In this document: positions 11,946-23,152 of the stretch, piece after piece
How positions within the stretch are numbered: the stretch's first letter is position 1
Layout of the letters: every line of letters begins with the position of its first letter
Source: Candidatus Kapaibacterium sp.
GTDB taxonomy: Bacteria; Bacteroidota; Ignavibacteria; Kapaibacteriales; UBA2268
NCBI GenBank assembly: GCA_963665665.1
Contig: OY762428.1
Location: 800,001-864,000, forward strand
Direction: 5' to 3'
DNA length: 64,000 bases
Program-made: the position numbers and the translations under genes
The notes under the pieces: generated by a model
The model's input: only the letters and a program-made list of their open reading frames with translations
What the model was told of the DNA's origin: nothing
Databases searched by the model: none

Positions 11946-12740
11946 TTATCCAGTAGAATCATTCCGTTTCAAAGAATCATTTTCATCAGCATATCCCCTT
12001 GTAGATGGAACATTGCCGGGAATTTCGCTAATGGTAACTTCCACCCTTCTGTTTTTCGACTTGCCGGCAGCATCATTATTTTCTGCTATCGGCCTTTGTG
12101 AACCAAAGCCGCGTATGCTCATATTTCTTTCCGGCACACCGCTTCTTATCAATGTATAAGCTACATTGGTAGCTCTGGCAACTGAAAGATGCCAATTAGA
12201 TTCGTACCTGAATGTTCTTATCGGATCTGTATCAGTATGGCCGTCAACGGCAATCTGTTTGTCAATTCCGCTTAAAACCCTGGCAAGAGTATCCAGAATA
12301 AACCTTCCTGCAGGCTCAATTTCAGCTTTTGCGGATTTGAAAAGCAATTTTTCCGGCAGGGTGAGAACAAAATTTCCGTTACCTCTTGTCATGGAAATTG
12401 TACCGTTATCAATGTACGAACTGAGTGCTTTTTTCGTTTCTTCAACAATTTCATCCACACTTACTTTCGATCCGCTTTGAAAGATCGGTTCAGGAAGTCC
12501 GTTCTTTTGTCCTTCCAAAAGCCCGTCGCCTCCCTCAAGAACCCCGGCACCTGTTTTAAAATACTGAGCCATGGCAGCAGAAAACTCACTGTACTTTTCC
12601 TGATCCACCTGCGAAGCAGCGTAAAGTATAACAAACAGGCCCAATAGCAGTGTTATTAAATCGGCATAAGTAATCAGATACCTGTCGGTTCCGGAATTAT
12701 GTTCTTCATCGCTTAAATCATGTGTTTTTCTTTTTTTCAA
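11946..12740 (-). CDS. motB: Flagellar motor protein MotB (OmpA/MotB family)
   Basis: TYADLITLLLGLFVILY TM with conserved Asp; GHTD, SNWHLSVARA, NRRVE. Confidence 0.9.
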   Translation of the reverse strand: MKKRKTHDLSDEEHNSGTDRYLITYADLITLLLGLFVILYAASQVDQEKYSEFSAAMAQYFKTGAGVLEGGDGLLEGQKNGLPEPIFQSGSKVSVDEIVEETKKALSSYIDNGTISMTRGNGNFVLTLPEKLLFKSAKAEIEPAGRFILDTLARVLSGIDKQIAVDGHTDTDPIRTFRYESNWHLSVARATNVAYTLIRSGVPERNMSIRGFGSQRPIAENNDAAGKSKNRRVEVTISEIPGNVPSTRGYADENDSLKRNDSTG

Positions 12741-13055: not shown

Positions 13056-15614
13056 TTAATTCTTTTCCATCCGGATAGTTTCTTTCAATGTTATACACTT
13101 TTCAAACCTGAATTCTACTGTTTTCGCCTGGTAACCATCATATTCTAATACCACACGATAAACTGCCGGCGCTGTAAGGCCGTCGAATATAACAACTCCG
13201 TCGTTGTTTGAAATCAAATCTTCAATAATCCTTTCGCCACTATAAATAATTACTTTTACTCCGCCCAGAGCACGTGACGATTCTGCATCTTTGATAATCA
13301 ATTTCAATATAGCATCATCGCAAGGTTCGCCATTGGACTTTTCCATTAATTTCACAGGATCAATCACTTCATTGCAACCTATCCTGACTTCAAATTCAAC
13401 GTCCTGATATCCTTCGGCAATTATCTCGACTACATAGCTTCCTTCACATACATCTTCGAAAAGAGCGTAACTTTCGCCACAGACAGCATCAGCAATAACA
13501 TTACCTGAATGCCATAACTTTACTTCCGCCCCTTTTATTACGGTCTTTGTTTCAGCATCCTTTGGAACAATATATATCTTGCCGTCACAGCAGGAATCTT
13601 TCTCCGATGTCCTGACAAGTTCCTTTACTATTTCCTTTTCTTTATTACAACCAAGTTCTATTGCAAATTCTATGTGCTTGTAACCCTCGGCCATTATATC
13701 AACACCATATTTACCCTCGCAAAGGTCAGTAAACAGTACCATGCCGTTCTCGGTATATTTGGTTTCAAGCTCTTTTCCGTCCTGCCATAATACTACTTTG
13801 GCATTATTTATTTTCTCGCCGGTGCGGCTGTCTTTGGCTAATATATATATCTTGCCGTCGCAGCAGGAATCTTTCTCCGATGTCCGAACAAGTTCCTTAA
13901 CTATTTCCTTTTCTTTATTACAACCAAGTTCTGTTGCAAATTCTATGTGCTGGTATCCTTCGGCCATTATATCAACACCATATTTACCTTCGCAAAGGTC
14001 AGTAAACAGTACCATGCCGTTCTCGGTATATTTGGTTTCAAGCTCTTTTCCGTCCTGCCATAATACTACTTTGGCATTATTTATTTTCTCGCCGGTTCGA
14101 CTGTCTTTAGTTATTATATATATCTTGCCGTCGCAGCAGGAATCTTTCTCTGATGTCCTGACAAGTTCCTTAACTATTTCTTTTTCTTTATTACAGCCAA
14201 GTTCTATTGCAAATTCAATGTGCTTATATCCCTCGGCCATGATATCAACCCAGTAATTACCCTCGCAAAGGTCAGTAAACAGTACCATGCCGTTCTCGGT
14301 ATATTTGGTTTCAAGCTCTTTTCCGTCCTGCCATAATACTACTTTGGCATTATTTATTTTCTCGCCGGTGCGGCTGTCTTTGGCTAATATATATATCTTG
14401 CCGTCGCAGCAGGAATCTTTCTCCGATGTCCGAACAAGTTCCTTAACTATTTCCTTTTCTTTATTACAACCAAGTTCTGTTGCAAATTCTATGTGCTGGT
14501 ATCCTTCGGCCATTATATCAACACCATATTTACCTTCGCAAAGGTCAGTAAACAGTACCATGCCGTTCTCGGTATATTTGGTTTCAAGCTCTTTTCCGTC
14601 CTGCCATAATACTACTTTGGCATTATTTATTTTCTCGCCGGTTCGACTGTCTTTAGTTATTATATATATCTTGCCGTCGCAGCAGGAATCTTTCTCTGAT
14701 GTCCTGACAAGTTCCTTAACTATTTCTTTTTCTTTATTACAGCCAAGTTCTATTGCAAATTCAATGTGCTTATATCCCTCGGCCATGATATCAACCCAGT
14801 AATTACCCTCGCAAAGGTCAGTAAACAGCACCATGCCGTTCTCGGTATATTTGGTTTCAAGCTCTTTTCCGTCCTGCCATAATATAATTTTAGCACGATT
14901 TATCTTCTCGCCGGTTCGACTGTCTTTAGTTATTATATATATCTTGCCGTCGCAGCAGGAATCCTTGTATTCATTACTTGAAAGTGTAAAATCTTTTGCA
15001 ACAGTATCACATTTTCCAAGTTCAAACTGAGTTTCAATTACTTTATAACCGTCTTTTGCAATTCTTATCCAGTAATTTGCAGAACAGAGGCTGTCAAACC
15101 TGATATAACCGTTATCATTTGTATTACCCTCTGCTATTATAACATCCTCCAACCCTATCCTGACATTTGCATTGCCGACCTTTTCTTTCTCCATGTTGCC
15201 GACATTTATTTCAACAACAGAACAGCAATCATCATCTTCAGCTCTTGAATCAACCAGGGTTATCAGAAGATTCTCTGTTTGTTTGTCATCGCCGCTTATA
15301 TCGCTCAGGCTGGAATTAAACGGATCATGGCCATCAGCCTGAACTTTAATCGTAACAGAAGCAAATGTTTCAGGAATATTCATCAATTCGAAATTCCCTT
15401 CATCATCAGTTGTATCCCTGTCAATTAAATTATTAGCAGCTCCATAAGCTTCAATTACTGCTCCGCCAATAAATTTTCCGGAAGTACTTTTTATCTTACC
15501 GCTAATCGTTTGCAGGCTGCTGACGGAATCCGTTGAATTATCGCAGGCCCAAAAGGACAGTACTATAATTAACAGAAGAGCTCCTATATATTTTATCTTG
15601 TTAAAAGTTTTCAT
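13056..15614 (-). CDS. Lipoprotein with tandem carboxypeptidase-regulatory-like (prealbumin-fold) Cys-rich domains
   Basis: Lipobox FWAC; repeated KD..TG..I..A.V.L..T..NG...F.DLC.G.Y...I.AEGY units, each opened by DSCCDG. Confidence 0.8.
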   Translation of the reverse strand: MKTFNKIKYIGALLLIIVLSFWACDNSTDSVSSLQTISGKIKSTSGKFIGGAVIEAYGAANNLIDRDTTDDEGNFELMNIPETFASVTIKVQADGHDPFNSSLSDISGDDKQTENLLITLVDSRAEDDDCCSVVEINVGNMEKEKVGNANVRIGLEDVIIAEGNTNDNGYIRFDSLCSANYWIRIAKDGYKVIETQFELGKCDTVAKDFTLSSNEYKDSCCDGKIYIITKDSRTGEKINRAKIILWQDGKELETKYTENGMVLFTDLCEGNYWVDIMAEGYKHIEFAIELGCNKEKEIVKELVRTSEKDSCCDGKIYIITKDSRTGEKINNAKVVLWQDGKELETKYTENGMVLFTDLCEGKYGVDIMAEGYQHIEFATELGCNKEKEIVKELVRTSEKDSCCDGKIYILAKDSRTGEKINNAKVVLWQDGKELETKYTENGMVLFTDLCEGNYWVDIMAEGYKHIEFAIELGCNKEKEIVKELVRTSEKDSCCDGKIYIITKDSRTGEKINNAKVVLWQDGKELETKYTENGMVLFTDLCEGKYGVDIMAEGYQHIEFATELGCNKEKEIVKELVRTSEKDSCCDGKIYILAKDSRTGEKINNAKVVLWQDGKELETKYTENGMVLFTDLCEGKYGVDIMAEGYKHIEFAIELGCNKEKEIVKELVRTSEKDSCCDGKIYIVPKDAETKTVIKGAEVKLWHSGNVIADAVCGESYALFEDVCEGSYVVEIIAEGYQDVEFEVRIGCNEVIDPVKLMEKSNGEPCDDAILKLIIKDAESSRALGGVKVIIYSGERIIEDLISNNDGVVIFDGLTAPAVYRVVLEYDGYQAKTVEFRFEKCITLKETIRMEKN
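13602..14966. repeat. Five near-identical 273-bp (91-aa) intragenic tandem repeats
   Basis: Directly visible; identical antisense ORFs at 13741 and 14287 show a 546-bp higher-order period. Confidence 0.95.
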
Positions 15615-15950
15615 TATTTTGCTCCGAATGTTAAAGTTTATTAATTTAAAGCGACCCAATATTACTAACAGCTAATATAATAAAAGCTCACAAAATTCCC
15701 CTGATATTTAGCTAAGTTTTAAAAAAACGTATGAGTGTAATTATATAATTTAATTATTTACTATTTATACAAAAATAATAATGAAGAATGGGTTGTTTTT
15801 ATTAAAATAAATGTTATATTATGTTGTACGACATAATAAAATGATAAGCTTGGAAAATAATACTAACTTAATTCAAATATGACGGGCCGTGAAGATTTTA
15901 ATTAACGACATTTATGATCTTGCATTATATACTATTTCAGGAGATTATCA

Positions 15951-16490
15951 ATGGCTAAAAAAATTGATGAAAAAGAAGCAACTATGCTTCCTACTGCCGG
16001 AAACTTAGAACAAATCAGAGATATCCTTTTCGGTAAATCCATGCAGGAACTGGAGGAAAGATTCGTTAACCTTCAGGAATCATTGACTAATGAAATATCC
16101 GTCCTAAGGGACGATACAAAAAAAATGTTCAATACTCTTGAAACTTATGTTAAGGAAGAGCTCAACTCTTTCGGCCAGCAACTAAAAAGCGAATCCGATG
16201 AAAGAGAAGAATCTGATGAAAGAATTATCAGGGAAAAAGATACACTGGCAAAGAAATTCAATGCCTTCGAGAAGGAAACCACCCGGGTTCAAAGTGATAT
16301 AAGATCCCAGATTCTTGATCTTAACAAGAAATTTTCAGACGAACTTTCAGAAGCAAGGAAAGATCTTACCACGAACCTTAAAAAAGCACAGGCTGATTTG
16401 CAGAATAAGAAAACAGACCGTTCCAAACTTTCTTCACTTCTGACGGAAATGGCTTTAAGAATAAGCGACGATGATTCTGAAACAAATTAA
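15951..16490 (+). CDS. Helical coiled-coil protein, first gene of the small-GTPase operon
   Basis: LEQIRDILFG start, heptad-rich body, KTDRSKLSSLLTEMALRI end. Confidence 0.75.
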   Translation: MAKKIDEKEATMLPTAGNLEQIRDILFGKSMQELEERFVNLQESLTNEISVLRDDTKKMFNTLETYVKEELNSFGQQLKSESDEREESDERIIREKDTLAKKFNAFEKETTRVQSDIRSQILDLNKKFSDELSEARKDLTTNLKKAQADLQNKKTDRSKLSSLLTEMALRISDDDSETN

Positions 16491-16505
16491 TATTGCCAGG
16501 ATTCA

Positions 16506-18230
16506 ATGAGTAAAAACACAGATATTGAATCATTGAAAGAATGGGAACAACTCAAGGAAATCCTGACCGGAGAAGAAAAAAGGCAAATCGAAAGTATTCT
16601 CCGCCGGCTTGACGACGATAAAATACACGCTTCGGAAATTAGCAGGATTCTCCCCGAAGCCCTCAGGCTGAGCGCCAAGCATGGTAACAGGCTAAACGAG
16701 GTTCTCATTCCGATAATTGAAAAAACTTTGCAGGAAAGTATGCGAAGGAATTCGCATATACTTGTTGATGCATTGTATGCTCTTATTGGCCCTGCTACCA
16801 GAAAAGCAGTTTTCGAATCTATGAAGGGCCTGCTTCAGTCTTTTAATACCGCGCTGGAAAGTGTCTTCACAATTAAGGGTATTAAATGGAGAATAGAAGC
16901 AATTGCCACAGGCAAGCCTTATGCCGAAGTGGTTCTTATCCATAGTATCGTTTACCAGGTTGAGCAGGTTTTCCTGATTCACAAAGAAACAGGATTATTG
17001 CTTCAACATGTTAAAACTGATAATATAATAGTCCAGAATGAAGATATGATCTCCGGAATGCTGACTGCTATTCAGGATTTTGTTCATGATTCATTTCAGG
17101 TAAGTGAAAATGATTCGCTGAACACGATGAATGTTGGCGAGATGACCGTATGGGTTGAACAAAGCCCGCATACAGTTCTTGCAGTCGCTATAAGGGGCAC
17201 AGCACCTGTATCCTTAAGGCAGACGATGACTGATACAATAGAAAGGATTCATTCGGATTATATTCAGGACCTTATAGAATTTGAAGGCGATACAGATGTT
17301 TTTCAGCCTTCGGCAGGAGAGCTGGAAAAATGCCTTGAAAAACAGGTTAAATCAGACGATAAAAAGACCCCGGCTTTTGCCTGGGGGGGTATCACTGCTG
17401 CTATTTTGATTTTCATGACATTTTTATATTTTCAAATTTCGGATTCTATCAGATGGAGCGACTATACAGAAACCCTTAGACAACAGCCTGGAATTCTGGT
17501 ATTAAACGAGGACAGGGGAATTTTCACTAATTATATTAGCGGAATGAAAGATATGTATTCGGAATCCCCGGACAGCCTTCTGAAAAATTTCGGATATACA
17601 ACTGAGAATGTTGAATCCGAATGGCTTGAATATCTTGCGCTTGATCCGCAAATGATGATACGAAAAGCAATCCTTATCCTTGATGCTCCTGAAACAATTT
17701 CTTTTAGCTTCAGTAACGGATTATTGAAGGCCTGGGGCAAATGTAACGAGAAATGGTATGAAAGAGCTTTGAGAACAGCGCCTTTGATAACTGGTGTAAA
17801 GGATATTGACTTTTCAGGAATCAGTTTGTCCGAAGGAGAAAATGTTGATGCGATTATTAAAAGTATTGAAAAAACATATATCAACTTTGTAAAAAACAAA
17901 ACCAGGCTGATAAAAGGGCAGGATGAAAAAGTAGAGAAACTGGTACAGAAAATTAGAAACCTGATAAAACTTTCGCCAAATAAAGAAATCAGCTTAGAAA
18001 TAATGGGTCACACAGATTCAAGCGGCTCTGAAAAAACAAATGCCAAACTGAGCTGGAACAGAGCCAAGAGTTTTATGGAATTACTAAGCACTCACGGGTT
18101 GATAGATATTGATTTCACTATAAAAGGTATAGCTTACTCTCAGCCATTGGTTGAGGAAAAGACAGAAAATGACCGCCAACTAAACAGGCGGGTTAGTTTT
18201 GATGTTAAACTTGGATGGAACGAAAAATAA
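16506..18230 (+). CDS. Membrane protein: cytoplasmic helical + longin/roadblock-like domain, TM, periplasmic OmpA domain
   Basis: VEQVFLIHKETGLLL..MISGMLTAIQDFVHDSF; TM AWGGITAAILIFMTFLYF; GHTDSSG..NAKLSWNRA..NRRVSF. Confidence 0.82.
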   Translation: MSKNTDIESLKEWEQLKEILTGEEKRQIESILRRLDDDKIHASEISRILPEALRLSAKHGNRLNEVLIPIIEKTLQESMRRNSHILVDALYALIGPATRKAVFESMKGLLQSFNTALESVFTIKGIKWRIEAIATGKPYAEVVLIHSIVYQVEQVFLIHKETGLLLQHVKTDNIIVQNEDMISGMLTAIQDFVHDSFQVSENDSLNTMNVGEMTVWVEQSPHTVLAVAIRGTAPVSLRQTMTDTIERIHSDYIQDLIEFEGDTDVFQPSAGELEKCLEKQVKSDDKKTPAFAWGGITAAILIFMTFLYFQISDSIRWSDYTETLRQQPGILVLNEDRGIFTNYISGMKDMYSESPDSLLKNFGYTTENVESEWLEYLALDPQMMIRKAILILDAPETISFSFSNGLLKAWGKCNEKWYERALRTAPLITGVKDIDFSGISLSEGENVDAIIKSIEKTYINFVKNKTRLIKGQDEKVEKLVQKIRNLIKLSPNKEISLEIMGHTDSSGSEKTNAKLSWNRAKSFMELLSTHGLIDIDFTIKGIAYSQPLVEEKTENDRQLNRRVSFDVKLGWNEK

Positions 18231-18731
18231 ATGGTAAAGAAAAAGATAGTTATGCTTGGGGCATTTGCAGTCGGAAAAACTTCACTTGTACAGAGATTTG
18301 TCAGAAGTATTTTCTCCGAGAAATATCACACGACAATAGGAGTGAAAATTGATGAAAAAACTGTTATTGTCGGAGATATTGAAGTAAAAATAATTCTTTG
18401 GGATATCCACGGTGAAGATGAGTTTCAGAAGGTAAAAAAATCATACATCATGGGTTCTTCGGGATATATAATGGTTGCTGACGGAACCCGAAAAAATACT
18501 TTCAACACAGTGGAATACCTTCACGATCTTGCTGTATCAACAGTTGGCGAGGTTCCATTCCTGTTTTTAATCAACAAATCCGACCTGACAGATGAATGGG
18601 ATATTGAAGATAGTGATATCGATAAAATCAAAGCAAAAGGATGGAACACTTTTATTACCAGTGCAAAAACCGGGAATAATGTGGAAGAAGCCTTTAGATT
18701 ACTTGCAGAATTAATGGTTAAAGCGAAATGA
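18231..18731 (+). CDS. Small Ras/Rab-like GTPase (Rup-type)
   Basis: G1 GAFAVGKT, G2 TTIGV, G3 WDIHG, G4 NKSD, G5 SAKTG. Confidence 0.92.
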   Translation: MVKKKIVMLGAFAVGKTSLVQRFVRSIFSEKYHTTIGVKIDEKTVIVGDIEVKIILWDIHGEDEFQKVKKSYIMGSSGYIMVADGTRKNTFNTVEYLHDLAVSTVGEVPFLFLINKSDLTDEWDIEDSDIDKIKAKGWNTFITSAKTGNNVEEAFRLLAELMVKAK

Positions 18732-20260
18732 TTAATATACCTCCTGAAATAGTTGAATTTATTGCCTCGCGGGGATTAGAATTCTCCAAACCGGCATATA
18801 TAATTGCTAATTACGATGAAAAGATAGTTAACTTCGGCGGCGAACTTAGTTATTATGGTTTCAATAATATAAGTTTCGGTGATGATATCAATGATGTTCA
18901 TAGCATGTTCGAGGGATATTTCCCCTTCAGGGGTTCAGAAACAGAACTACCACTTATAAAATTCAATGACGACATAAGAGCAAACGTTTTTATCTTTCAC
19001 CGCAGCAGTCATTACTGGATTGTTTTTTTAGATATTTCACAATCAGAAGATAAATTGAAGGAATTCTACCAGGCAAGGAATGATCAGAAATTGTTCCTTG
19101 ACAAAGAATTTCATTTTAGTAACGATGACTCGGTATTCGATGTTCTCAGATTCCTTGATATTTTAGTATTGGAAAGGAAGAGCCAGGATATTTTCGCTGC
19201 TCACGGGAAAGCTCCTATTTGGGCAGATTTTCTGAAACCAGGTTCCAAAGGATATGTTAATACATCGAAACTTATTGACAAGTATCAATTTGTTGAAATA
19301 TTTCTGATGACAGCTGAAGTTTTCTGGGAAAATAACAACCGCGGGCTGATGAAAAGCGATATATGGTCGGAAGAAGATGAAAACAGGAATGAAATATTTA
19401 TGGAAGCAACGGCAATTAGCATGGGTGTAAGAAAGTTCCTGCTTATCCAGAAATCATCAAGTTCGGCCAATGAAAAAAGAATGCTGATACAGCGTGCCAG
19501 GGAACTTAGCCTTGAGCATGAACTCAGGAAAAAAGCCGAAGCTGCCCTTGAAAAGAAAAATAAAGAATTACAGGAGCTAAATGCTACAAAGGATAAATTT
19601 TTCTCGATAATTGCCCACGACCTGAGAAACCCGATCGGAGCTTTCAGAAATATTACCGAAGTATTTTCACTGCATCTTAATAAAATGTCTGAGGATGAAA
19701 TCCATGAATTGATTGTAATGCTCAGCGATCAGAGCAACAACCTGATACGGCTGCTTGACAATCTGCTTCAATGGTCCAGGGCTCAAATGGGGTCCATTAA
19801 ATACAGGCCAGATATTCATAACATAAATGAAATAATTTCAAATATTATTGAAATCCAAAATGTTCAGGCAATTGAAAAAAATATTAAAATTGAAAATAAA
19901 ATTGATATTAAAGATGCTGTATATTGCGATAGTGATATAATTGCCGTTGTTACCAGGAATTTAATTTCCAATGCAATAAAATTTACTGAAAAGGGAGGTG
20001 AAATTGTTGTATGGAGTGAAGATAAGGATAATGAAATTATTTTTCACGTGCAGGATAGTGGTGTCGGGATTTGCGAATCTAATCTAAATAAATTATTCAC
20101 CATCGACTCGAATTTAAGCACTTCAGGGACTTCAAAGGAAAAAGGAACAGGTTTAGGATTGATTCTCTGTAAGGAATTTATTAATTTACATAAAGGGAGA
20201 ATATGGGTTGAAAGCGATTGCGGAAAAGGCAGTACTTTCAGTTTCTCGATACAGAAATAG
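18728..20260 (+). CDS. Cytoplasmic sensor histidine kinase
   Basis: H-box IAHDLRNP, N-box NLISNAIKF, DSGVGI, GTGLGL; ATGA overlap with GTPase gene. Confidence 0.92.
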   Translation: MINIPPEIVEFIASRGLEFSKPAYIIANYDEKIVNFGGELSYYGFNNISFGDDINDVHSMFEGYFPFRGSETELPLIKFNDDIRANVFIFHRSSHYWIVFLDISQSEDKLKEFYQARNDQKLFLDKEFHFSNDDSVFDVLRFLDILVLERKSQDIFAAHGKAPIWADFLKPGSKGYVNTSKLIDKYQFVEIFLMTAEVFWENNNRGLMKSDIWSEEDENRNEIFMEATAISMGVRKFLLIQKSSSSANEKRMLIQRARELSLEHELRKKAEAALEKKNKELQELNATKDKFFSIIAHDLRNPIGAFRNITEVFSLHLNKMSEDEIHELIVMLSDQSNNLIRLLDNLLQWSRAQMGSIKYRPDIHNINEIISNIIEIQNVQAIEKNIKIENKIDIKDAVYCDSDIIAVVTRNLISNAIKFTEKGGEIVVWSEDKDNEIIFHVQDSGVGICESNLNKLFTIDSNLSTSGTSKEKGTGLGLILCKEFINLHKGRIWVESDCGKGSTFSFSIQK

Positions 20261-20618: not shown

Positions 20619-21884
20619 TCAGTTGTTCAATATTGGGATTTTTACAATAAAAGTACTTCCATCCCCCGGTTTGCTTTCAACTTCAATTATCCCGCCAAGA
20701 GCATCAACATATCTTTTACTGATAGATAATCCAAGGCCAATCCCTCTTTGCAGGCCAATATATTTTGAACTTCTGTAAAATGGTTCGAATATTTTTTCCA
20801 GTTCCCCGGCAGATATACCGTCTCCAAAATCTGTTATTGAAAAAATAAAAGAATTATCAGGCATATTGAATGTAATGATAATTGGTTTTTCTTGTGGTGA
20901 ATATATTTGCGCGTTAGTTAATAAGTTTTTCATGATATTTTTTAGCAAATGGATATCTGTGCATACCTTTGTAGTTGTGCTATTGTTCTTTATTTCAAGC
21001 CTTCTGCCGGAATTAGCTTTAATTTCCGAAGCAAATATATTGGCCAGGTCAACAAAATCTAAAAGTTCCCGATTTACCCGAATTTTGTGAATATCTGAGG
21101 GGTTGACTTCCAGAGTTTTGTCCAGCAGTTCTGTCATCGATTGAACTGAAGAGAAAATTTTATCGAAAAACCTATCGTATTTAATGTCTCTTCCTTTGCT
21201 CAGGGCTACTTTAATAATTTCAGCCGAAGATAATATTTCTGTCAGGGGTGTTCTGTATTCATGTGAAATTGTCGAAATAATCTCTGATTTTAAAAGTCCT
21301 ATTACTCTTTCTTTTTCAAGCAATATTTCTAAATTATGATGGGCTTCTTCCAGCTCGAGGGTTCTTAATTTAACTCTTTCTTCAAGATCCCTGTTCATTT
21401 TAGCAAGGTCATCCCCGAATTTTTTTCTTTGGGTAATTTCGCTTTTCGCTTCATCAATTTCAACCTTTTTTTCAACTATACGCCTGGACAGGTCTGAAAC
21501 ATCATTAACTGTAATTGCCAGATAATTAACAGAATCATCCTGCTCGAAAACAGGGAACATTGATATATTCTGCTTAACATTACCGCAGTTTTTACCTTTT
21601 GCAACAAAAAGGCATTCATGCAGCTGAGATGACAAAGTAACAGGCAGGCCTTTTTCAAATGCAATCTTCAATCTGTTTTTTAGCAGTGGATTTGAAAAAG
21701 CAGGGAAAAGGCAATCAATTTTAGAACCCAGAATATGTTCTCTTTCAATACCGGTATATGTTTCCAATATTGAATTCCAGAATATTACTTTCTCTGATTC
21801 ATCTATAATGCAACAACCTGTTGCAATGTAATCAAGCAATGAAAATCTTGCGCTAAAGCTATTATTCCTGATTGGCTTATTCAT
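20619..21884 (-). CDS. PAS-domain histidine kinase
   Basis: N-terminal PAS (IIDESEKVIFWN); SHEYRTPLT, NLLTNA, GIGLGL. Confidence 0.9.
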   Translation of the reverse strand: MNKPIRNNSFSARFSLLDYIATGCCIIDESEKVIFWNSILETYTGIEREHILGSKIDCLFPAFSNPLLKNRLKIAFEKGLPVTLSSQLHECLFVAKGKNCGNVKQNISMFPVFEQDDSVNYLAITVNDVSDLSRRIVEKKVEIDEAKSEITQRKKFGDDLAKMNRDLEERVKLRTLELEEAHHNLEILLEKERVIGLLKSEIISTISHEYRTPLTEILSSAEIIKVALSKGRDIKYDRFFDKIFSSVQSMTELLDKTLEVNPSDIHKIRVNRELLDFVDLANIFASEIKANSGRRLEIKNNSTTTKVCTDIHLLKNIMKNLLTNAQIYSPQEKPIIITFNMPDNSFIFSITDFGDGISAGELEKIFEPFYRSSKYIGLQRGIGLGLSISKRYVDALGGIIEVESKPGDGSTFIVKIPILNN

Positions 21885-22485
21885 TATCTGTGCTTATGTG
21901 TTCATCAATAATCTCGATAATTTTGCTAAGTGTTTCAAATTTCAGAAAAAGAATAAAATCCCCTGACAGTTCTAACTCACTTATGGTAAATTTGGTTTTG
22001 GCAAGAAGTGCTCTTTTGGAATCATCTAAATTATTCTTAATAACATCCTGCATTGTTTGCTCAAGATAAAAAGGAGCCTTGAACCTGATCCGGGTATCGA
22101 GAACATTGCAAATCGATCCCATTAGTGAATTAAGTACAATATTTCCGATTTCAATAAAAGTAGCTTCAAAAAGAGATTCCGTATCCTCCTCTAAGTTATA
22201 ATATCCCGCAAAAGCATGAGTTAATTTATGTGCATTTTCTTTTGTAAAAAATAATTGCGACACTCCGCTAAGAGGGCCGCCAAAATCCATTTGTACAATC
22301 GAGAGTTTGTTGTTCTTCAAATAGTCATATTCTTCGATAGCATCGGCAGAATTAATTATTTTAATATAAGGCACTTCAAGATTGATCGGCTTATTTACCA
22401 GGGAGTTGAGAATGTCCGCAGCCTGGAAAACCCCGATATTGATCAGGTCGTTTAATTTTTTTCTTAATGGATCCTGAATTAGCAT
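21877..22485 (-). CDS. cheC: CheC-like phosphatase
   Basis: DLINIGVFQAADILN and EIGNIVLN motifs; LEVPYI. Confidence 0.82.
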   Translation of the reverse strand: MLIQDPLRKKLNDLINIGVFQAADILNSLVNKPINLEVPYIKIINSADAIEEYDYLKNNKLSIVQMDFGGPLSGVSQLFFTKENAHKLTHAFAGYYNLEEDTESLFEATFIEIGNIVLNSLMGSICNVLDTRIRFKAPFYLEQTMQDVIKNNLDDSKRALLAKTKFTISELELSGDFILFLKFETLSKIIEIIDEHISTDNE

Positions 22486-22883
22486 ACCGACTTCTCCGTT
22501 TCAATAAGCGGTTTCAATAAATTGAAAATATCTTCTTTTCGGGGCGGTTTATTAAGAAATCCGTAAGCACCCAGACTGTAGCATTCATCTTTTACTTTGT
22601 CCTGAATATCAGAAGTGAGTACGATAATCGGAATTTTCATATTATATTCTTTAATTAATTTCAGGAATTCAATGCCATCCATTTCCGGCATTAACAAATC
22701 AAGAATTATTATGTCAGGTTTTTTTGCAAGAACTTTAGCAAAGCCGTTTTTTCCATTTGCTGCTTCTATAGTATCCAGATTCAGTTCGTCAATTGTTCTT
22801 CCTATCATTTTTCGGGCTATCAAAGAATCGTCAATTATCAAAACACGTTTTTTACTTCTATCCATCAGGTCGTTTTCCTTCAT
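22479..22883 (-). CDS. Single-domain (CheY-like) response regulator
   Basis: IIDDS, LDLLMPEMDG, LTSD, NKPP. Confidence 0.9.
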   Translation of the reverse strand: MKENDLMDRSKKRVLIIDDSLIARKMIGRTIDELNLDTIEAANGKNGFAKVLAKKPDIIILDLLMPEMDGIEFLKLIKEYNMKIPIIVLTSDIQDKVKDECYSLGAYGFLNKPPRKEDIFNLLKPLIETEKSVC

Positions 22884-23152
22884 ACGTAAATGTAATCCTA
22901 AACCAAAAATAAATAAAATCATTACCAATTACAATCATTTACAATTACGAAAGTAATATTGGATAATTGTTAAAAATTCAAAACTCTTTGCACACAAATG
23001 AATTCAAGTAGTTTTAAATATTAGCATTATAAAAAAGTAAAATACAGTTTAATCAATTAAAATCGACTATTAATAATTCAGTTCATAAGATGCCGCTGAT
23101 TCATCTTCAACCCAACATCCTGTATGATGGATCAGATTTCAATAGCTTTCCG

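Follow-up and report, generated by a model that had tools for sequence, protein, structure and literature searches.

A Group 1 Rup small GTPase module of Candidatus Kapaibacterium encodes a membrane protein with a predicted longin fold and a kinase with two predicted PAS domains

We analysed a locus of four genes at positions 15951-20260 of a 64,000-nucleotide stretch of contig OY762428.1 (assembly GCA_963665665.1) from Candidatus Kapaibacterium sp.; this whole stretch is referred to below as the window, and all coordinates are window positions. The four open reading frames (ORFs), all on the + strand, encode a coiled-coil protein, a single-pass membrane protein, a Ras/Rab-like small GTPase and a soluble histidine kinase. 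We assign the locus to the Group 1 Rup (Rup1) system, and structural models place a longin fold in the cytoplasmic part of the membrane protein and two divergent PAS folds at the N-terminus of the kinase.

A four-gene module around a small GTPase

The four genes, with protein lengths in amino acids (aa), are:

15951-16490, + strand: coiled-coil cytoplasmic protein (179-aa ORF)
16506-18230, + strand: single-pass membrane protein with a predicted longin domain and an OmpA-like domain (574-aa ORF)
18231-18731, + strand: Group 1 Rup (Rup1) Ras/Rab-like small GTPase (166 aa; Pfam match and G1-G5 motifs)
18728-20260, + strand: soluble histidine kinase with predicted PAS-A and PAS-B domains, a signalling helix, HisKA and HATPase_c (510 aa; Pfam matches and model)

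The junctions were read directly from the DNA. A 15-nucleotide (nt) spacer separates the coiled-coil gene from the membrane-protein gene, the TAA stop codon of the latter directly abuts the ATG of the GTPase gene, and the GTPase and kinase genes share an ATGA overlap. The four co-oriented genes are thus translationally coupled, and the tight coupling described by an earlier sequence-only reading of this DNA (the original prediction) is confirmed, at the coordinates given there. This arrangement is far beyond chance; the same gene order recurs in most of 80 related loci from many phyla. Scanning for promoter-like sites (19, against 17.6 expected) and terminator-like sites (5, against 3.2 expected) was uninformative. 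NCBIfam returned generic OmpA, small-GTPase and kinase models alone, all under the specific-family cut-offs, and the matches in the ESM Atlas were exclusively unnamed 'hypothetical protein' clusters.

The first protein of the module gave weak Pfam matches of the coiled-coil type only. Its family has a conserved N-terminal motif, IRDILFG.Q, and a C-terminal motif, KTDR..LA.LFTE.A.RL. A possible kinship between this protein and the N-terminus of the membrane protein, both of which start with a pattern of the form L..(I/L)R.(I/L)L.G, was rejected, as the profile comparison was not significant (hhalign E 0.096, probability 0.6%).

The membrane protein carries a predicted longin domain

Residues 1-310 of the membrane protein were aligned with 43 homologues (alignment A1) and modelled with AlphaFold2 (AF2), giving a mean predicted local distance difference test (pLDDT) score of 65.8. 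The protein divides into five regions:

16506-16946, + strand: helical cytoplasmic region, residues 1-147 (conserved in A1; AF2 helices)
16947-17351, + strand: predicted longin-fold domain, residues 148-282 (AF2, VIA-align, Foldseek)
17370-17432, + strand: single transmembrane helix, residues 289-309 (hydropathy and model)
17442-17867, + strand: conserved periplasmic region, residues 313-454 (family conservation)
17886-18188, + strand: OmpA-like peptidoglycan-binding domain, residues 461-561 (Pfam OmpA, 1.5e-10)

Pfam searches at an E-value of 10 found nothing meaningful for residues 1-290 or for the periplasmic residues 313-454. Within the first 147 residues, P69, S78, G95, R99, W128, R129 and E131 are invariant in A1, and the AF2 helices there are of low confidence (pLDDT about 42-72). 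The region that follows is modelled as two strands (β1, 150-159; β2, 165-170), a helix (α1, 179-196), three further strands (β3-5, 207-210, 213-219 and 223-231) and two later helices (α2, 235-251 together with 253-257; α3, 264-274), with an additional helix (139-147) preceding β1. The order of elements from β1 to α3 agrees with the longin topology as defined in PMC3747258. The two motifs singled out in the original prediction map to β1-β2 (VEQVFLIHKETGLLLQH) and to α1 (DMISGMLTAIQDFVHDSF). The segment S183-F197 of α1 holds 9 of the 27 invariant family columns of A1. In longin and roadblock platforms, this single-helix α1 face is described as the face at which GTPases bind and dimers meet (PMC3747258).

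Structural comparison of residues 148-282 by VIA-align gave as the best match the longin domain of Sec22 (3egd_C; Z 13.2, root-mean-square deviation 2.6, 121 residues), followed by CPLANE (7q3d_C, Z 12.6), VAMP7 (4afi_B, Z 12.5), Ykt6 (1iou_A, Z 11.1), sedlin (2j3w_A, Z 11.0) and a Lokiarchaeota longin (8yqg_B, Z 10.8). Chains of known platforms also matched (Mon1/Ccz1, Z 9.3-9.7; DENND1A, Z 8.3; SRX, Z 8.2-9.6), and roadblock chains matched lower, with Z 8.1-8.8 over about 100 residues (MglC 7cy1_A, 8.8; MglB 3t1r_A, 8.7). All 50 of the structural matches listed were longin or roadblock proteins. Foldseek returned nine chains at E 1.2e-4 to 7.8e-4, among them AP sigma (1.2e-4) and Mon1-Ccz1 (2.9e-4), and a TM(target) of 0.74 for Sec22b. 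The longin/roadblock-like fold proposed earlier for this protein was therefore recovered by both methods, with longins as the best matches. Residues 148-282 are a longin domain as modelled, assigned at the level of the fold only, because sequence comparison gave no match to any longin, whether family model or solved structure: Pfam was silent even at E 10, and the family profile searched against the PDB matched OmpA-like chains only. Prokaryotes were stated in 2013 to have no longin domains (PMC3747258), and Dey et al. 2016 give 'Longin/Roadblock' jointly as present in bacteria (PMC4917890).

The transmembrane helix was placed by a hydropathy window at 289-307 and a model helix at 290-309, and hydropathy finds exactly one such segment in 76 of 77 family members. 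Among solved structures, the family profile also picks up OmpA-like domains such as PA0833-PD (2.9e-16) and YfiB. The description of an OmpA protein with one transmembrane segment proved correct. Clustered at 50% identity, the membrane-protein family comprises 4279 clusters at E <= 0.001, 2850 at E <= 1e-10 and 1519 at E <= 1e-30.

The GTPase is Ras/Rab-like and lacks the catalytic glutamine

The third protein matches the Pfam Ras family at 5.8e-31, and also Roc and Arf. Its best solved relatives are Rab23 (1.7e-27), Rab6, a Thorarchaeota Rab and Rab35. As had been predicted for a complete small GTPase, all five motifs are intact (GAFAVGKTS, T35, WDIHGE, NKSD and SAK), in keeping with the family patterns G-x-F-A-V-G-K-T-S for the P-loop, Y-x-T-T-[VI]-G-V-K for G2, NKxD for G4 and SAK for G5. 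The position of the catalytic glutamine is occupied by glutamate here and, among 65 module GTPases, by E in 48, A in 8 and Q in 4. The P-loop phenylalanine, whose position we take to correspond to Ras Gly12, is present in 52 of the 65. The threonine of G2 (T35) is kept in 61 and the glycine of G3 in 64. The histidine of WDIHGE, to which the original prediction drew attention, is real in this protein, but the position proved variable in the family (Y 21, A 12, E 12, H 9 of 65). By its sequence, this Ras/Rab-like GTPase is competent to bind nucleotides and has no catalytic glutamine. It is the sole copy in the 5.46 Mb single-contig genome, and its C-terminal sequence carries no lipid-anchor motif.

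The kinase N-terminus is modelled as two divergent PAS domains

The kinase comprises the following parts:

18728-19117, + strand: PAS-fold domain type A, residues 1-130 (model and structural matches)
19124-19531, + strand: PAS-fold domain type B, residues 133-268 (model and structural matches)
19589-20251, + strand: HisKA, residues 288-354 (H-box FFSIIAHDLRNP; Pfam 5.7e-8), and HATPase_c, residues 401-508 (Pfam 1.3e-21)

An H-box (HDLRNP) and the N and G boxes are present in the translation, and Pfam detected no transmembrane or HAMP region in the kinase. Comparison by phmmer with the ORFs of related loci resolved residues 1-270 into two separable domains, A and B. The model of this region, built on an alignment of 74 sequences, has a pLDDT of 91.2, and each half consists of a PAS fold followed by a long helix. 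PAS-A matched photoactive yellow protein (1odv_B, Z 9.3 over residues 20-103) and PAS-B matched the PAS/HD-GYP protein DvhD (9rc0_A, Z 9.1 over residues 133-270), and the N-terminus also matched the Brucella LOV-PAS-HK protein (6ph4_B, Z 8.8; Foldseek 6pps_D, 5.3e-7). Every one of the 50 structural matches listed contains PAS, and Foldseek gave 155 matches at E <= 0.001. Pfam PAS models matched neither half at E 0.01. The kinase N-terminus is thus modelled as two divergent PAS domains, an assignment made at the fold level only. Profiles of the two types are weakly similar (E 0.0023, probability 12.5%), so their kinship rests on the shared fold. The helix after each PAS core carries a conserved glutamine: Q115 after PAS-A (97% of 30 sequences) and Q255 after PAS-B (96% of 49 sequences). 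A word-indexed search with the kinase N-terminus found 13 proteins, a number that understates the family, as phmmer and hidden Markov models (HMMs) applied to the related loci gave many more.

The gene order is conserved across phyla

Conservation was assessed by a pattern scan of one genome per species, which found at least 599 stretches, at least 537 of them encoding a relative; the best 80 loci were kept, and the 76 with a complete membrane-protein ORF form the basis of the neighbour counts. The titles of these loci name Acidobacteriota, Desulfobacterota, Cyanobacteria, Nitrospirota, Dehalococcoidia, Gammaproteobacteria, Myxococcales and others. Where the contig leaves room, the membrane-protein gene is immediately preceded by a homologue of the coiled-coil gene in 72 of 72 loci and immediately followed, on its own strand, by the GTPase gene in 65 of 72. 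Sixty-two loci have at least 2.5 kilobases (kb) downstream. In 52 of these the GTPase is followed by a protein with A or B, and in 3 such a protein is encoded upstream of the coiled-coil gene; none was found in another 3, and the last 4 lack a downstream GTPase. In HMM searches of all 80 loci, 33 had B only, 18 A only, 13 both and 16, mostly short contigs, neither.

Among 401 genomes of the same phylum, related ones not being independent of each other, the longin region occurs in 16 and the GTPase in 17. The GTPase is present in all 16 genomes with the longin region, and one genome alone (G203) has the GTPase only. The original prediction had made joint conservation of the four genes a test of itself, and by these counts the genes do keep together across genomes. 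Within its own family and order the module is patchy, occurring in 2 of 41 genomes, the source genome included.

The PAS domains are joined to diverse outputs

Seventy-one ORFs with an A or B domain were compared for their output parts. HATPase_c is found in 27, many of them hybrid kinases with REC and Hpt; 12 carry only further Pfam PAS domains, 6 carry HD_5 (HD-GYP), 3 Guanylate_cyc, 3 SpoIIE and 3 Sigma54_activat with HTH_8. The remaining 17 are stand-alone proteins of 120-249 aa without a Pfam domain, and no GGDEF/EAL output was found among the 71. At cyanobacterial loci, A is encoded by a separate small gene that is followed by the gene for a B-containing kinase. Because A and B are joined to six kinds of output or stand alone among these ORFs, they behave as a portable, transferable input domain.

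Longer relatives of the GTPase were collected at E <= 1e-20 (16 proteins) and their domains were placed by HMMs. They include the GTPase followed by A (P0142, 304 aa, 4 member sequences), the GTPase followed by B (P0141, 373 aa, one sequence), B followed by the GTPase (P0145, 307 aa, on 5 contigs) and the GTPase followed by PAS_4, HisKA and HATPase (P0138, 555 aa). P0135 (738 aa), in which the whole membrane protein precedes the GTPase, was not accepted as a true fusion; we read it as a read-through of abutting genes, since the GTPase would otherwise be periplasmic.

Apart from these, a TIR domain (PF13676) is fused to GTPase relatives in 7 of the 16 long proteins (P0134, P0136, P0137, P0139, P0140, P0144 and P0146). 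Six of them share 46-55% identity with the GTPase and P0146, which also has TPR repeats, shares 40%. The TIR-GTPase architecture differs from that of the signalling cassette and may be defence-related.

Neighbouring genes

Upstream of the module, on the - strand, an 867-aa protein of CarboxypepD_reg/PEGA-like domains is encoded at 13056-15659. Its gene holds a 273-bp tandem repeat (13570-14963, 5.1 copies, 93% match), and on the opposite strand the repeats produce spurious ORFs that are identical to each other. The gene at 11946-12740, also on the - strand, encodes a MotB-like protein (MotB_plug and OmpA), a second nearby protein with an OmpA domain that is unrelated to the module. Downstream, at 20619-22928 on the - strand, lies a convergent unit of three overlapping genes for a receiver-only protein (149 aa), a 202-aa protein without a Pfam family and a PAS histidine kinase (421 aa).

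The locus belongs to the Group 1 Rup system

Wuichet and Søgaard-Andersen (Genome Biol Evol 7:57; PMC4316618) noted that the conserved G3 glutamine is absent from Group 1 Rup GTPases. The neighbourhood they reported comprises a coiled-coil cytoplasmic protein, a protein with a domain of unknown nature, an inner-membrane helix and an OmpA domain, and an output protein. The output protein is given as one of two kinds, GGDEF/EAL or histidine kinase, with an invariant glutamine in its N-terminal region; this glutamine was proposed to be supplied in trans as the residue of a GTPase-activating protein (GAP). Their text states that no Rup had been characterised at that time. Every described neighbourhood feature that we tested is present here, and the locus is therefore a member of the Group 1 Rup system, a placement set by the described features and not by a GTPase tree. 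The GTPase, at 166 aa, also lies within the size range given for Rup1 (<240 aa, Ras superfamily, with G1-G5).

The two descriptions share the same four components in the same roles and a matching taxonomic spread (Cyanobacteria, Chloroflexi, Proteobacteria and others), so that the neighbourhood was already catalogued in 2015 and the present locus is one more copy, ordinary when taken alone. The novelty claimed in the original prediction was accordingly overstated, as the gene neighbourhood, the missing G3 glutamine and a signalling role all appear in the text of PMC4316618. What is added to the description of Group 1 Rup is that the domain of unknown nature models as a longin, that the output N-terminus models as one or two PAS-fold domains, that outputs extend to HD-GYP, cyclase, SpoIIE and sigma-54 activator proteins, and that GTPase-PAS fusions occur. 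In the open papers searched, which cannot serve as proof of absence, we found no bench study of Rup1 members, and none of those papers assigned a longin fold to the Rup1 membrane protein. A preprint on Asgard Arf proteins treats Rup1 as a tree group only (bioRxiv 10.1101/2024.02.28.582541). Published trees group Rup1 with eukaryotic Rab/Ras/Rho/Ran and Asgard RasL (PMC4316618; bioRxiv 10.1101/2024.02.28.582541).

Beyond Rup, the module works like, but is not a member of, three known kinds of system. The eukaryotic longin platforms Mon1-Ccz1/Ypt7, TRAPP/Ypt1, DENND1B/Rab35 and SR-alpha SRX/SR-beta likewise pair a longin fold with a Rab/Ras-like GTPase. The present protein has no detectable sequence similarity to them (7-12% identity, no Pfam Longin match); one gene fuses its longin to a transmembrane helix and a cell-wall anchor, the activity of a guanine-nucleotide exchange factor (GEF) is suggested by analogy only, and the output is a two-component kinase and not membrane traffic. 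In Myxococcus and Thermus, too, a small GTPase (MglA) is paired with a longin/roadblock-superfold protein (MglB, also MglC). In contrast to MglA, Rup keeps the G3 aspartate and is Ras/Rab-like, and the partner described here matches longins better than it matches MglB or MglC (Z 13.2 versus 8.8; 121 versus about 100 residues) and is membrane-anchored, whereas MglB is a small soluble dimer. Last, the actinobacterial conservon (CvnA-D; the mycobacterial mfp operon) is described as joining a small GTPase, a longin/roadblock protein and a histidine kinase (PMC4316618, PMC13015309). The GTPase of the conservon is of the MglA type, its Roadblock protein (CvnB) is soluble, and its other members are a DUF742 protein (CvnC) and a membrane kinase (CvnA), whereas here the kinase is soluble, the longin protein is in the membrane, the GTPase is of the Ras type and Pfam gave no Roadblock or DUF742 match. 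Roadblock, in particular, was matched by none of the nine neighbouring proteins scanned with Pfam. As to the kinase itself, Brucella LOV-PAS-HK shows the same succession of PAS-PAS, helix, HisKA and HATPase; compared with such tandem-PAS kinases, the PAS domains here form two families beside Rup genes and their proposed input is a GTPase.

A proposed signalling chain and its alternatives

We consider it moderately probable that the module acts as a chain leading from the longin platform through the GTPase to the PAS-domain kinase. The membrane protein, which is probably dimeric and would act jointly with the coiled-coil protein, would dock the GTPase at the inner membrane, with its longin domain as the platform; there the longin domain would set the nucleotide state of the GTPase. 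By analogy with Mon1-Ccz1, TRAPP and DENN, nucleotide exchange is the more likely activity of the longin domain; it may, as in MglB, instead assist a GAP. The GTP-bound GTPase would then bind the A/B PAS domains of the effector and alter the output of the kinase. GTP hydrolysis would need a residue supplied in trans, because glutamate stands at the Gln61 position and phenylalanine at the Gly12 position. Candidates for this residue are Q115 or Q255 of the kinase, as proposed in 2015, or one of three invariant residues in the membrane protein (R99, R129 or Q154). The OmpA domain would fix the complex to peptidoglycan.

In favour of this chain stand the agreement with the Group 1 Rup neighbourhood, the modelled longin fold with its many invariant columns on α1, the adjacency and co-occurrence of the genes, the variety of outputs joined to A and B, and the fusions of the GTPase to PAS domains. 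Several observations weigh against it. None of the methods applied showed binding of the GTPase to a partner. A complex predicted from residues 1-288 of the membrane protein, residues 1-270 of the kinase, the GTPase and GTP gave ipSAE values of 0.44, 0.46 and 0.43, and the controls gave 0.00 and 0.00 when the GTPase partner was replaced and 0.43 when the first chain was replaced by an unrelated protein; we count this prediction neither for nor against binding. In the AF2 model, α1, the would-be docking face, has a pLDDT of just 57-64, within a model that averages 65.8. The conserved glutamines may be core residues of a coiled coil and not catalytic, because the long helix that holds them continues into HisKA. 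Seven of the 72 loci with room have no adjacent downstream GTPase. Four of the seven, labelled Desulfobacterota (L007, L020, L029 and L058), have a divergent GTPase (WDIAGLEKF) upstream on the opposite strand; they keep the coiled-coil and longin/OmpA genes, and an A/B PAS protein was not found in them. Three genomes of one genus (G053, G080 and G256) have the longin gene and the GTPase gene on different contigs. The fusions are few, and the order GTPase-PAS could be a frameshift artefact, because the GTPase and PAS-kinase genes normally overlap by 4 nt.

The OmpA part, too, is missing from some versions of the module. At four loci labelled Dehalococcoidales or Dehalococcoidia (L042, L055, L065 and L074), the membrane proteins are 336-340 aa long and end just past the transmembrane helix. 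Dehalococcoidia are not known to have peptidoglycan. Because these loci keep the module without the OmpA part, the OmpA domain is dispensable for the core and envelope input is not essential. The core consists of the cytoplasmic region and the membrane anchor, with OmpA as an envelope-specific addition, and the relay of envelope state that had been put forward for this locus is a conjecture. Behind the truncated membrane protein comes a B-PAS protein, which is an HD-GYP enzyme at three of these loci (L042, L065 and L074) and a histidine kinase at the fourth (L055).

The strongest alternative, which we regard as unlikely, is that the longin domain serves dimerisation, scaffolding or the sensing of a small ligand, while the GTPase exchanges its nucleotide spontaneously and the PAS effector acts as its GAP through the conserved glutamine. 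A shared fold alone shows no function, and the conserved glutamine of the effector would complement the missing G3 glutamine, as proposed in PMC4316618. The GTPase fusions, moreover, are to PAS domains, and the sole one involving the longin protein, P0135, looks like a read-through. A mere scaffold would sit less easily with the co-occurrence of longin region and GTPase in 16 of 16 genomes and their adjacency in 65 of 72 loci, or with the finding that α1, the platform face, is the most conserved element of the domain; solved longin and roadblock partners of small GTPases are described as acting as platforms (PMC3747258).

Also considered, and improbable in our view, is a positioning or polarity device, in which the peptidoglycan-anchored protein would mark a fixed site such as a pole or septum and the GTPase would recruit the kinase there, as with MglA/MglB in Myxococcus. 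Anchoring by an OmpA-like domain immobilises a complex, a GTPase without a lipid-anchor motif needs a membrane partner, and known bacterial small GTPases are described as acting in polarity. Yet signalling enzymes and transcription activators make up the overwhelming majority of the outputs; the 71 ORFs include no cytoskeletal or motility protein, and versions without OmpA exist. Positioning is, in any case, compatible with the proposed chain from longin platform to kinase.

We think it very unlikely that the GTPase is hydrolysis-dead and permanently GTP-bound, acting as a structural cofactor of the kinase complex. Substitutions at the Ras-12 and Ras-61 positions abolish hydrolysis in Ras and Rnd proteins, and the module GTPases have phenylalanine at the former in 52 of 65 and glutamate at the latter in 48 of 65. 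On the other hand, Rap-type GTPases, which lack Gln61, still cycle with a GAP acting in trans; conserved glutamine and arginine residues of both partners are available in trans here, and the switching residues G2 Thr35 (61 of 65) and G3 Gly (64 of 65) are kept. Finally, that the cassette is an anti-phage defence system, as the TIR fusions in 7 of 16 long relatives and weak PADLOC matches to ZorB (OmpA part, 1.6e-9) and ZorA (coiled coil, 9e-4) might hint, is scarcely credible, since the PADLOC matches cover generic OmpA, coiled-coil and kinase parts with none for the GTPase, the outputs are ordinary signalling domains and the operon contains no defence-type effector.

Implications

The boldest form of the proposal is that the longin domain is the cognate, membrane-anchored exchange platform of the Rup1 GTPases, the nearest bacterial kin of Rab/Ras/Rho/Ran, that the PAS families read the state of the GTPase, and that the pairing of longin and Rab is consequently not an invention of the Asgard-eukaryote lineage; we advance it tentatively, at somewhat less than even chances. 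Were it true, the longin-Rab pairing would exist in bacteria too and would be either ancient or transferable, and a pair of PAS domains would hand the state of a GTPase to kinases, cyclases, phosphatases, HD-GYP enzymes and sigma-54 activators. The cassette, which occurs widely among bacterial phyla, recalls the logic of eukaryotic GTPases. Should the longin domain be the regulator and the PAS domains the effectors, the cassette would provide a simple bacterial model of the longin-GTPase-effector logic of eukaryotic membrane traffic, with kinase activity as an easy read-out, and would bear on the origin of eukaryotic GTPase logic.

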